The position numbers are program-made. A stretch of DNA of 31,040 nucleotides from Escherichia coli (GTDB lineage: Bacteria > Pseudomonadota > Gammaproteobacteria > Enterobacterales > Enterobacteriaceae), in assembly GCF_030013205.1 (NCBI RefSeq), contig NZ_CP122651.1. The stretch is one strand, 5' to 3'. Of this stretch, positions 18,001-21,000 are shown piece after piece. The number at the start of each line of letters is the position of its first letter. Within the stretch, counting starts at the first letter, position 1.

Positions 18001-21000
18001 AACCTATTCACTGCCTGTCCTGTGGACAGACAGATATGCACCTCCCACCGCAAGCGGCGGGCCCCGACCAGAGCTACTTTAGTTACAACACACAAACAGA
18101 ACCACCAGGAAAAACCCCGGTCCCACGCAGAACTGAAGCCACAAAGCCCCTCCCCCATAACTGAAAAGCGGCCCCGCCCCGGCCCTTCGGGCCGGAACAG
18201 AGTCGCTTTCAATTATGAATGTTGTAACTACATCATCATCGCTGTCAGTCTTCTGGCTGGAAGTATTGAGTACACGCTCGTAAGCGGCCCTGACGGCCCG
18301 CTAACGCGGAGATACGCCCCGACTGCGGGTAAACCCTTGTCGGGACCACTCCGACCGCGCACAGAAGCTCTATCATGGCTGAAAGCAGGTATGGTCTGGC
18401 AGGGCTGGGGGTGGGTAAGGTGAAATCTATCAATCAGTACCGGCTTACGCCGGGCTTCGGCGGTTTTACTCCGGTATCATATGAAACAACAGAATGCCGC
18501 CTTACATGCCGCTGACGCGGCATCTGTCAACTTAAGTCAAAACAAAAAACCAACAAATTTAGTCGTTAAAGGGGAGCCCGCAGAATTCGGAAAAAATCGT
18601 ACGCTAAGGTTTTCCGGGCATCCGTAAGGGCCGAAACTTCCCGTCTTCCAGTCTGCGGCTCTGCCGCCAGACGTAATCGCCGGTTAGGTTGATGTGCTCC
18701 CAGCCCAGCGGCGACAGGAATTGCAGCAGCTCGCCGTCCACCGGCTTGCCGGCCTCGACCAACCCCTGGGTGGCGCGTTCCAGGTACACCGTGTTCCACA
18801 GCACGATAGCCGCCGTCACCAGGTTGAGGCCGCTGGCCCGGTAGCGCTGCTGCTCGAAGCTCCGATCCCTGATTTCCCCAAGGCGGTTGAAGAACACCGC
18901 CCTGGCCAGCGAGTTGCGCGCCTCACCTTTGTTCAGGCCGGCATGCACGCGGCGGCGCAGTTCAACACTTTGCAGCCAGTCCAGGATGAACAGCGTGCGC
19001 TCGATCCGGCCCAGCTCGCGCAGGGCCACGGCCAGTCCGTTCTGGCGCGGGTAGCTGCCGAGCTTGCGCAGCATCAGCGAGGCGGTGACGGTGCCCTGCT
19101 TGATCGATAGGAATTTAAATCCCCAAAAGACTAAAAAAGCACCACAAAACGGATATTTCTTCAACACCCCTTGTGCACCATATGAGCGGAAACGACTATT
19201 AAACAGGATGACACTGATTGATACAGGGTATGAATGGCGGTTTTTTGCTCCGTTTCCGGTAAAATGGACGCAACTTCCCCTCTGCGGCTCTCAGCCGCAC
19301 ACCTGCTGTCGTGCCAGTCGCTCATGCATCAGGACCAGCTCTGCCAGTCGGTAACCCCGCTTCAGCCCCGTAAAACGCATCTGACTTCCGCACAGAATGC
19401 ACTTCAGCGGGTCAACCTTCAGTAACCTCTGATACATCCCTCTCCACCTGATTTGCATCGCCGTCTTTCTCACCGTCTCCGTTATGACGTACACAACTTC
19501 TTCCAGTAAGCGGCGCTTCACCGGACTCAGGAAACCGTAGTACCTCACCATACGGAACCCCTTATCTGCTACATGCCAGGAGAACCTTTCCATGAACTCA
19601 TCTCCACTCATCAACAGGTATTCTTCCCGTTTTGTACGGTGACTGTTGTAACGCAGACCGATTTCATCCTGACCGGCATAATGCTCCAGCCGACTCATCG
19701 GCACCGGTGGCTTTTTCAGGTAAGAGCCGAAGTACACCGCCACATGTGTGGCGTTATCCATCACCCTGGATATGTTGACATTCCAGCCGCGGCGGTAATG
19801 CGTGTCCAGGAAGCAATTCCAGTCCCGTTTGCTGTTTCCTTCCACTGCCAGTTCATCCGGTATTACCAGCTCCGGGTATTTCCGGGACAGTAGCCGCGTT
19901 ATCCGGTAACGCCACATGCTCATCACCTTACGGGCGTAAAAATGAAGATTTTTCCAGGTGTGGCCCGACGTCACACCACCGGCAGTTGTCGATAAATGGA
20001 TATGCGGATGCCACTGCTGGTCACGCCCCCATGTGTGGATCACCGTGAATATCCCCGGCTCCACATCTGTCTGATGGCAGATTTCCAGTATCACATCCGC
20101 TGCAATGCGGCTCATCTCTGCCAGTAACCACCGGTTGTGGAACACCAGGGACCAGTACTGGCAGGGAAGTGTGAACACAATATGCTGCCACGGGCAGTCG
20201 GGGACCAGGCTCAGCAGATACTGTATCCACTGTGCGCCAGCCTTCACTCCGCAGTGCGGGCAGGAGCGACTTTTACACCGGAAGCAGACCTTTTTTGTGT
20301 GGCAACAGTCCGGAGATGAACAGCACCACTGTGTGTACCCCATCAGCGTGGTTCCGCACGCCATGATTTTTGTCACCGACTCAATGACTACCGGACGCAC
20401 TGAACCTTCCGGTTGTTTCTCCAGCCAGTTAAGCCAGCGGTTTCCCTGCTGAAAAATGTCGGCAAAACGGGGAAGCATCAGAAGGGCGGGGGGACTCCGT
20501 CCGGCCAGTGAACCGTGCCACACTCCGGGCAGTACATGCCGCCGGCACTGATACCGGCAAGAATGGTTGCAAACTCCCGCTCCGTACAGCGGGCTATTTC
20601 CGGATACCCTTCGTCATCGACACGAACAAACCAGAAGACCAGCTTTTTGTTTCCTGCATCCAGAAAGAACGGAATACCCAGGTCAGCGCAGCACTCAACG
20701 GCATCGTCAAAATTATCAAAGCGCAGAACTTCAGCGTCTTCTTCGTCAAAAAAATCATCCGGATGAAGTTTCACAACATAGCGGGGAAGTTTGCTTCTTT
20801 GTGGTGCGGGTTTGCGTTTACGGGGTTTAGCTGAACGGGCCATATAACTACCTGAAAGACAATGACATTATCTTTTTTTATAACGGTAATTCCAGACCAT
20901 GACAAGCCGCAGCCGCCAGGCTGCCTACTCGATCGAGCTGGCCAGGCGCAGGATGTCGTCCCAGTGGGCACGCACGTGCTTGATGTTCAGGGTGCCGCCG

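Follow-up and report, generated by a model that had tools for sequence, protein, structure and literature searches.

A likely primase-dependent priming signal at the right end of the IncFII replicon, with a truncated second copy

The IncFII replicon and two look-alike segments

The window, by which we mean the whole 31,040 nt stretch of Escherichia coli DNA analysed here (from contig NZ_CP122651.1), includes an IncFII replicon in which CopA, tap/repA, a DnaA box with oriR, two inverted Ter-like sites and then the element examined in this study follow one another on the plus strand (Table 1). Two segments, at 18437–18530 and 27216–27310, had been described in an earlier note as paralogous, and this was borne out. 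Copy A (18442–18523) and copy B share 64 of 72 aligned bases (89 % identity), and similarity is far above chance, as the second copy was recovered with E=3e-18 when copy A was the blastn query against both copies in the identical relative L001. The alignment includes a single 10 nt gap, the bases missing from copy B being GGGCTTCGGC (copy A 18452–18461), and the same 7 bp hairpin is present in both. When the 31 kb window was searched with a profile of the family, only two matches were found (E=6e-24 and 2.5e-13), corresponding to copies A and B. The coordinates first given were in the right places but a few bases too long at each end, and the functional unit of copy A reaches approximately 45 nt farther left than they do, to approximately 18390.

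The surroundings had been correctly described. Copy A ends 47 bp before the inverted repeat of a Tn1721/Tn1722-type transposon, and copy B lies between the KfrA-like ORF and yacA/yacB (from 27359). The module between the copies consists of the KfrA-like gene and its upstream region (18524–18570 plus 26046–26115). The transposon sits inside this module and leaves the element untouched, and L001 is an uninterrupted relative. The kfrA-like module is rare, found in only 37 plasmids, and a diverged KfrA-like homologue adjoins kfrB/kfrC-like genes in a MOBP plasmid.

Table 1. Positions in the window of the replicon, element, transposon and flank features
Feature	Position	Strand	Basis or remarks
CopA RNA	16642–16731		Rfam match
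repA ORF	16804–17673		repA annotation in relatives
oriR, IncFII	17848–18035	+	DnaA box TTATCCACA at 17848 and A+T-rich part, downstream of repA; alignment and conservation
Start block GGTCTGGCAGGG	18393–18404	−	Minus strand reads CCCTGCCAGACC; CTG 18400–18402 is the proposed primase initiation triplet
A/T-rich block GGTGAAATCTATCAATC	18419–18435	−	Conserved; between start block and hairpins; family alignments
Helix S1, CCGGC-TTAC-GCCGG	18440–18453	−	Both-side changes in 3 of 5 pairs
Competing hairpin CGCCG-GGCTT-CGGCG + GTTTT	18448–18467	+	Terminator-like; includes invariant core GGGCTTCGGC
Long-range helix S2, GGCGG 18459–18463 / CCGCC 18497–18501	18459–18501	−	Encloses variable interior of approximately 33 nt
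Helix S3, 7 bp hairpin ATGCCGC-TGAC-GCGGCAT	18506–18523	−	Right edge of conserved element in copy A
Tn1721/Tn1722-type transposon	18571–26040		Inverted repeats at 18571 and ending 26040; 5 bp TTAAA duplication
KfrA-like 'DNA-binding protein' gene, 355 aa	26116–27183	+	ORF list; L001 annotation
Copy B, partial	27223–27294		Has part of S1, interior, S2 3′ arm and S3 (ATGCCGC-TGGC-GCGGCAT, 27277–27294)
R100/pEG356-type right flank (ATCCTGGTGACGATATCTGAAT...) into yacA	27295–27358	+	Shares 98.3 % identity with pEG356-type plasmids, starting at 27223

The element is part of the IncFII replicon

A profile search found the element once per replicon in approximately 25 IncFII-family replicons (RepA 73–98 % identical) from Klebsiella, Yersinia pestis, Pantoea, Erwinia, Hafnia, Citrobacter, Serratia and other Enterobacterales. 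In every case the strand is that of repA, and the distance past the repA stop is approximately 750–1050 bp, mostly 770–810 bp. The earlier suggestion of a regulatory site of the maintenance region is not supported. The element belongs to the replicon, its distance downstream from repA/oriR being fixed in all IncFII-family replicons examined. Copy A is not a maintenance-region regulator but the right-hand hairpin domain of the IncFII basic replicon.

With oriR as the reference point for distances, and its extent of 188 bp presumed to be that of R1, the hairpins lie 402 bp and a conserved CTG (see below) 366 bp to the right of the end of oriR. The CTG is 22 nt ahead of the stop of an ORF (18022–18423) in the position of repA4. 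In a transposon screen, the repA4 region was needed for stable maintenance of an IncFII plasmid (PMC4398462). A stretch at 18270–18360 is conserved even more than the element and may belong to the signal or constitute another one.

The sequence is conserved in >5000 plasmids, and what follows it varies. At least three unrelated classes of right flank directly follow the last hairpin, diverging within 1–2 bases of it, and R100 and pEG356 share approximately 55 nt more beyond S3. Homology ends at 18523/4 in >5000 plasmids, but reading this as the end of the replicon is partly misleading, as the query carried the kfrA-type flank. The gene downstream of the element may be kfrA-like, phd/yefM, tir or yacA, depending on the plasmid, which leaves no common regulatory target. 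As the element is unannotated in all records examined and is without an Rfam entry, it looks like mysterious conserved non-coding DNA.

Homologues are also found outside the IncFII replicon. The IncFII-built profile matched F at 65,428–65,532 (E=8e-13) and the R100 leading region (L038:4838–4941, 1e-13), where the homologues sit between the leading region and oriT in the orientation that makes the CTG strand the transferred strand. R6K has one at approximately 22,960–23,091 (E 3.5e-7), a form that is kept in 1518 plasmids, and further homologues were found in other IncX plasmids and in an IncK/IncI-gamma plasmid.

Covariation supports three helices

The segments are structured, non-coding and conserved in related plasmids, and the comparison proposed in the earlier note, of conservation and covariation across IncFII plasmids, had a positive outcome. 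Helices S1–S3 were 93 % paired across 31 sequences, compared with 26–59 % pairing for slid controls. Both-side changes were observed at 10 pairs versus 2.7±1.4 in shuffled data, and none of 500 shuffles reached the observed number. At the place of S1, R6K has CCTCCCG/CGGGAGG. The interior of S2 is poorly conserved, and S2 itself occurs in compensatory variants (GGCGCC/GGCGCC, GGTGCC/GGCACC and GGCGAC/GTCGCC). Four of the seven pairs of S3 show both-side changes (ATGACGC/GCGTCAT, ATGCGCC/GGCGCAT, GTGCCGC/GCGGCAC and ATGCCC/GGGCAT).

Copy A folds better than its shuffled versions on both strands (z=−3.3 and −3.0), whereas for copy B, in which S2 is unable to form, z is only −1.7 and −1.0. DNA helices alone do not distinguish the strands, and the covariation fits a structured RNA equally well. 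Counts of wobble cells (G.T 5 versus A.C 1 after removal of misaligned rows), which lean slightly to plus-strand folding, were dropped as a means of picking the folding strand because too few cells are reliable.

A conserved CTG lies on the minus strand outside the hairpins

The start block lies approximately 35 nt left of the hairpins, outside the segment initially reported. Its CAGG is invariant in all 28 family members that have the column, and hence there is a conserved 5′-CTG-3′ on the minus strand, 3′ of the hairpins; a CTG on the plus strand at the start block is kept in only 13 of 28. The sequence after the proposed start is G-rich, as it is at the start of the phage G4 primer, and the start block resembles the G4 start, CCCTACTGCAAAGCC. 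A template CTG 3′ of the hairpins is present in copy A and absent from copy B.

Three other candidates were rejected. The CAG at 18435–18437 abuts an outer stem (TACCGG/CCGGTA), matches the G4 TACTG and is 401 bp from oriR. It was discarded because relatives do not conserve this triplet and because R100/pEG356 have a disrupted outer stem. A start on the plus strand at the CTG just after S3 (CATCTG in copy A, CATATCCTG in copy B; compare hairpin-CTA-CTG in G4) was discarded because a CTG is found within approximately 12 nt in only approximately 12 of 22 relatives, and also because the plus strand does not serve as template for the leading strand and is not the one transferred in F. The hyper-conserved stretch at 18270–18360 was rejected as the G site as it has no match in R6K or beside oriT in F.

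A probable priming signal for the leading strand

Our preferred reading, to which we assign a probability of about 0.75, is that copy A represents the hairpin domain of the primase-dependent ssi of IncFII (the 'G site', of G4 type, at approximately 18390–18524), and that copy B is a non-functional remnant. A primase-only G site reportedly lies approximately 400 bp downstream of the R1 oriR, and leading-strand synthesis of NR1 is said to start in repA4, near its 3′ end. The position of copy A, 366–402 bp right of oriR and where the repA4 ORF has its 3′ end, presumably fits that of the R1/R100 G site. G sites have reportedly also been found in R100, F and R6K, and in ColIb. Judged by its position and anatomy, copy A is most likely the published G site.

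A mechanism can be proposed from the anatomy of the element and from what is established for R1/R100 and phage G4. RepA and DnaA would open oriR and DnaB would unwind rightwards, leaving the minus strand, which is the template for the leading strand, single-stranded and coated with SSB. S1, S2 and S3 would then fold and would presumably be free of SSB, as is thought for the G4 hairpins. DnaG primase may recognise this structure and begin an RNA primer at the 5′-CTG-3′ on the minus strand. The primer, 5′-AGGGCUGGGGG... in the plus sense with A18401 as its predicted first base, would be extended rightwards as the leading strand.

Alternative explanations

The abrupt change of sequence past S3 raises the question of whether the element is instead a recombination site, acting either site-specifically or as a hotspot for the exchange of cargo modules, with the two copies as the outcome of such an event. 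At least three unrelated sequence classes do begin within a base or two past S3, and partial second copies are found in three lineages. However, the element has no associated recombinase gene, and inspection revealed no likeness to Xer, res or attC. The opposite junction, before GGCTTACGCC, differs, and ordinary homologous or illegitimate recombination at a conserved replicon edge gives the same picture. We consider a recombination site unlikely. Such a role is also compatible with a priming function.

Transcription terminators or insulators were also considered, copy A blocking read-through from repA/oriR into the cargo and copy B from the kfrA-like gene into yacAB. Both copies are at the ends of transcription units, and in copy A CGCCGGGCTTCGGCG followed by GTTTTA was picked up on the plus strand by a terminator scan. 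However, this hairpin does not covary, it is deleted in copy B of the window, and the T-run after it is missing in most family members, CGCCG/CGGCG with TTTT being confined to E. coli-type copies. The 7 bp hairpin lacks a T-run on either strand. Termination would also leave the invariant CAGG block, the long-range helix, the oriT-adjacent copies in F and R100 and the copy in R6K unexplained, and is quite unlikely.

A structured RNA, whether a small RNA or a cis-regulatory RNA whose helices would form in RNA, is equally compatible with the covarying helices, and the few wobble cells lean towards the plus strand, but this is very unlikely given that an Rfam 15 covariance search of 16000–28500 at E≤1 returned only CopA, a sub-threshold PK-repZ and a weak isrL, with none at either copy, that there is no promoter-like site within reach on either strand, and that the position of the element is fixed relative to oriR and not to any gene. 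The terminator and small-RNA roles put forward in the earlier note thus find no backing in an Rfam match, a nearby promoter-like site or a T-run at the 7 bp hairpin.

Origin of copy B and implications

Missing from copy B are the 10 nt core and both the start and the A/T-rich block. It aligns only to nodes 83–153 of the 154-node family profile and scores 50.8 bits versus 84.4 for copy A. In pS19_651-a, the corresponding copy B retains the 10 nt. In the window, copy B is followed by an R100/pEG356-type right flank, and hence belongs to the yacAB side; in R100 the same right flank precedes tir. SNP patterns, on which this reconstruction is based, suggest that recombination within the element most likely linked the kfrA-like module to a backbone of the pEG356/R100 type. 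This could have occurred via a single crossover in a shared 31 nt core, or via deletion of a second replicon down to GGCTTACGCC. Either way, joining would have left a direct repeat of approximately 80 bp around the kfrA-like gene and, later, the transposon. With direct repeats of this length, the kfrA-like gene and the transposon lying between them are predicted to be lost in a RecA-dependent manner.

With copy A most likely part of a known priming signal and copy B a truncated leftover, the finding is an ordinary one. The main value lies in annotation, as this is a cis-acting part of the commonest resistance-plasmid replicon. Recognising the element accounts for its conservation in >5000 plasmids, for the hairpin at the end of the conserved replicon and for the way in which module swaps can give rise to a truncated second copy. 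The profile and helices could be used to annotate leading-strand start sites and their oriT-proximal relatives across IncF, IncI/K and IncX plasmids.

In three independent lineages, namely the kfrA-like plasmid group, an Enterobacter replicon (L018) and an Izhakiella replicon (L016), a complete site is accompanied by a partial hairpin domain without the start block. Together with unrelated cargo modules that start within 1–2 bases of S3, this suggests that the leading-strand start zone may favour illegitimate joining. That this zone, which is presumably also where one round of replication ends, is a preferred joining place or, alternatively, that the extra hairpin domains are functional (in primase loading or SSB exclusion) we regard as unlikely. 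If joining does occur preferentially there, replication initiation itself would shape where IncFII plasmids gain cargo.

Comparison with known single-strand initiation systems

The Frpo/ssi sequences of the F and ColIb-P9 leading regions (PMC11541004) are likewise folded single-stranded DNA that starts RNA synthesis in conjugative plasmids, and the F/R100 leading region also has a homologue of the present element. Frpo is approximately 300 nt long and is read by RNA polymerase from a −35/−10 mimic in a long hairpin, whereas the present element is approximately 130 nt, and a promoter scan of 18000–18650 and 26900–27500 found no promoter-like −35/−10 hexamer pair. The sequences given in that study (PMC11541004) are unrelated to the element.

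The complementary-strand origin of phage G4 (NC_001420, primer 3970–3997) resembles copy A in design. Its hairpins lie 5′ of the template CTG, in the order hairpins, CTA, CTG, which is the same geometry as in copy A. The G4 primer starts with AG and continues G-rich, and this and the local motif CCCT..CTGC are shared with copy A. There is no overall sequence homology between the two, hairpin I of G4 is 3 nt from the CTG whereas the nearest helix in copy A is approximately 38 nt away, and the fold of copy A, unlike that of G4, includes a long-range helix.

The plasmid G sites (R1/R100, ColIb-P9, F and R6K) are close counterparts. They are said to have conserved blocks A–C, a dispensable middle domain and homology to G4 limited to the vicinity of the primer start, and their predicted secondary structure was reportedly not essential. 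Copy B differs from them in that the start block and the core block are missing, and to our knowledge a truncated second copy of this kind is not part of the described G sites. For copy A there is no demonstrable difference in position or anatomy. Like copy A, the G sites reportedly lie where repA4 has its 3′ end, downstream of oriR, with conserved flanking blocks around a variable middle and a conserved CTG on the leading-strand template, and they have been reported from exactly the plasmids in which homologues of the element were found.

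Copy A as a conserved part of the IncFII replicon

The finding is real but ordinary: copy A most likely belongs to a cis-acting replication signal that has been known for a long time but carries no database annotation. The case for its being part of an R1/R100-type G site, a primase-dependent single-strand priming signal, is strong but indirect. The earlier note had reported two paralogous segments of about 90 nt sharing a hairpin with a 7 bp stem, and both the homology and the hairpin proved real. In a pairwise alignment, copy A (18442–18523) and copy B (27223–27294) share 64 of 72 aligned bases, and ATGCCGC-N4-GCGGCAT is kept in both (at 27277–27294 in copy B), though 10 nt of copy A, GGGCTTCGGC, are missing from the copy B of the window. 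The similarity is above background: in an identical relative the second copy was recovered by blastn with E=3e-18, and the family profile, run over the whole window, matched at copy A and copy B only. The reported placement is also correct. Copy A lies just upstream of the Tn1721/Tn1722-type insertion, which starts 47 bp to its right, and transposon-free relatives, e.g. E. albertii p1 (L001), have repA, oriR and copy A, followed by copy B and yacA/yacB, with the KfrA-like gene between the two copies. The insertion splits the region upstream of that gene, 75 bp away from the start codon, and the right inverted repeat of the transposon is a variant, …CTGCGGTTCCCCC and not …CTGCGGGCTCCCC.

The IncFII replicon on the plus strand runs from CopA through repA, the DnaA box with oriR, and two Ter-like sites to copy A (see table). 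Both Ter-like sites, with oriR to their left and the proposed priming signal to their right, are highly conserved and fit the Tus-binding consensus.

Features of the replicon and its surroundings (window positions)
Feature	Position	Strand	Evidence or remark
CopA RNA	16642–16731		Rfam, 97.8 bits
repA ORF	16804–17673	+	
DnaA box	17848	+	A+T-rich oriR adjoins
Ter-like site, ACTTTAGTTACAACACAC	18076–18093		inverted relative to the other; conservation of the two 0.94–0.98
Ter-like site, AATTATGAATGTTGTAACTACA	18211–18232		inverted relative to the other
S1, CCGGC/GCCGG	18440–18453		alignment
S2, long-range, GGCGG with CCGCC	18459–18463 with 18497–18501		alignment
S3, hairpin of the earlier note	18506–18523		alignment
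Further hairpin, CTGGCTGCGCACTGCTCGCCAG	directly after S3		L012, L019, L020, L023, L026, L028, L031, L034 (comparison loci)
Tn1721/Tn1722-type element	18571–26040		7470 bp, 5 bp TTAAA duplication

Copy A is present in >5000 PLSDB plasmids. When 33 loci from GTDB species genomes, anchored on RepA, were searched with an iterated nhmmer profile, the element was found in about 25 replicons with RepA 73–98 % identical, from Klebsiella, Yersinia pestis, Pantoea, Erwinia, Hafnia, Citrobacter, Serratia and other hosts. In every case it has the same strand as repA and lies about 750–1050 bp (most 770–810) past the repA stop; it is a conserved part of the IncFII replicon. Ordinary IncFII plasmids have one element with cargo directly after it: pEG356 combines the left part of copy A, 10 nt included, with copy B's SNPs, and yacA comes next, R100 has the right flank of pEG356 and then tir, and others have a phd/yefM module. 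This divergence of cargo classes right after S3 would suit a recombination site, a reading compatible with a priming role, but no recombinase was found and known sites are not resembled; that cargo joins preferentially in the start zone is a minor possibility.

Conservation beyond oriR is highest at 18270–18360 (ACACGCTCGTAAGCGGCCCTGACGGCCCGCTAACGCGGAGATACGCCCCGACTGCGGGTAAACCCTTGTCGGGACCACTCCGACC), a stretch with many small hairpins. Column conservation there is mostly 0.8–0.98 (binned, 0.77–0.98) across 28 IncFII-family replicons and exceeds that of the copy A element. A partial homologue was found in F at 40,687–40,785 (E=1.7e-9), and none in R6K or beside oriT in F. It may act as a second single-strand signal or be bound by a protein.

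Covarying helices

Three helices, S1, S2 and S3, derived from alignment A6, are supported by covariation. Pair counts gave 93 % of S1–S3 cells paired (26–59 % in slid controls), and 10 of the 18 pairs vary on both sides, where shuffles gave 2.7 +/- 1.4 and 0/500 reached the observed value, so the conservation and covariation sought across IncFII plasmids are present. Compensatory variants include GGCGCC/GGCGCC, GGTGCC/GGCACC and GGCGAC/GTCGCC for S2, the interior of which is poorly conserved, ATGACGC/GCGTCAT, ATGCGCC/GGCGCAT and GTGCCGC/GCGGCAC for S3, and CCTCCCG/CGGGAGG for S1 in R6K. Most non-E. coli relatives have an additional conserved hairpin downstream of S3, CTGGCTGCGCACTGCTCGCCAG, with stem CTGGC/GCCAG; it is absent from E. 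coli-type replicons, where the flank is of R100/pEG356 type or cargo.

The earlier suggestion of terminators has lineage-specific support only, as the sole terminator-like feature is a competing hairpin (CGCCG-GGCTT-CGGCG, then TTTT) that shows no covariation in the family alignment and whose T-run is confined to E. coli-type copies. Small-RNA genes, or any structured RNA, are not supported, there being no Rfam match at the element, no promoter found near it, and a downstream gene that differs between plasmids. Nor, with no downstream gene in common, copy A a replicon part and copy B apparently a relic, did duplicated regulatory sites of the maintenance region find support.

Origin of copy B

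When aligned to a 154-node profile covering the start block, the window's copy B matches from node 83 only and that of pS19_651-a, which retains the 10 nt, from node 63; copy B is therefore without the start block and the A/T-rich block. In the window it also lacks the GGGCTTCGGC core and the S2 helix, and copy B folding is close to shuffles (z = -1.7 and -1.0). From 27223 onward, including yacA, the sequence is 98.3 % identical to pEG356-type plasmids. The 10 nt gap at 27232/27233 (relative to L004:3640–3650) is shared by the 17 plasmids (H26–H42) listed as at least 99.7 % identical to the window across this region, is absent in pS19_651-a and two E. albertii plasmids with the same kfrA-like/yacA junction, and is a secondary deletion.

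The SNP pattern joins a resident left end to a kfrA-side right half in copy A, and a foreign left junction to a pEG356-type right half in copy B. A single crossover in the shared 31 nt core would give this pattern; alternatively, a second replicon deleted down to GGCTTACGCC would have the same outcome. The kfrA-like module looks like captured cargo because it is rare (37 plasmids) and a MOBP plasmid carries a diverged homologue next to genes resembling kfrB and kfrC. Copy B thus appears to be a truncated relic of module shuffling. Partial second copies in IncFII-family replicons of Enterobacter (L018:4768–4879) and Izhakiella (L016:4798–4909), separated from the preceding complete site by about 35 nt, more diverged and without the start block, are the same kind of partial duplication but with no inserted gene. 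Upstream of the kfrA-like gene, at 26072–26106, GTTTGTT/GTTTATTTGTTTGTTG repeats run just before a -10-like TGTGTATAAT and are a plausible operator for the KfrA-like repressor; the array differs slightly between the window and L001.

Start block and homologues in other plasmids

Leftward extension of the alignment found GGTCTGGCAGGG at 18393–18404, outside the coordinates of the earlier note. CAGG of this start block is invariant (28/28 sequences having the column) whereas the plus-strand CTG is kept in 13/28 only. It follows that conservation falls on the minus-strand triplet 5'-CTG-3', which on that strand lies 3' of the helices. Replication of R1/R100 proceeds rightwards from oriR and, with repA at the left, the minus strand is thus the leading-strand template; it would be a sensible template for a primase start at the conserved CTG.

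Profile matches that include the start block were found in F (65,428–65,532; L044:15428–15532) and on the oriT side of R100 (L038:4838–4941). They are flanked by the DUF932 gene, which is the last of the leading region, and by the oriT-adjacent transglycosylase gene, and are oriented like the tra genes. A further weak match lies in F at 53,948–54,021 (E=0.007). In both oriT-side homologues the CTG-bearing strand is, by their orientation, the transferred strand, so that a primase signal there would set off synthesis of the complementary strand in the recipient, and these homologues could be such start sites. The R6K match (L042:22960–23091), a diverged member near taxA and origin alpha, keeps all three helices via compensatory changes; 1518 plasmids carry the R6K form at 75–80 % identity and, R6K itself being typed as IncX2, are presumably IncX. 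An IncK/IncI-gamma plasmid carries the IncFII version (94 % identity).

Comparison with known priming signals

The G site of R1/R100 reportedly needs primase alone with SSB, serves as a leading-strand start and lies about 400 bp downstream of oriR, and the start in NR1 is said to be in repA4, near its 3' end. Here, past an oriR taken to extend 188 bp as in R1, the CTG lies at 366 bp and the helices at 402 bp. G sites were reportedly isolated from R100, F, R6K and ColIb, and are said to have common blocks A–C with a dispensable middle domain and a likeness to G4 limited to the primer start. The family described here has homologues in exactly those plasmids and, as in those G sites, the flanks of copy A are conserved and its middle is variable. 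The stop of ORF 18022–18423, which has the position of repA4 in the pEntH10407 table, comes 22 nt after the CTG, and the repA4 region is required for one IncFII plasmid to be stably maintained (PMC4398462). The complementary-strand origin of phage G4 has the same layout, with hairpins III, II and I followed by CTA and then the CTG at which the annotated primer starts. The local sequences are alike (CCCTACTGCAAAGCC in G4, CCCTGCCAGACC on the minus strand of the window), and in both the primer would begin with AG, then G-rich sequence.
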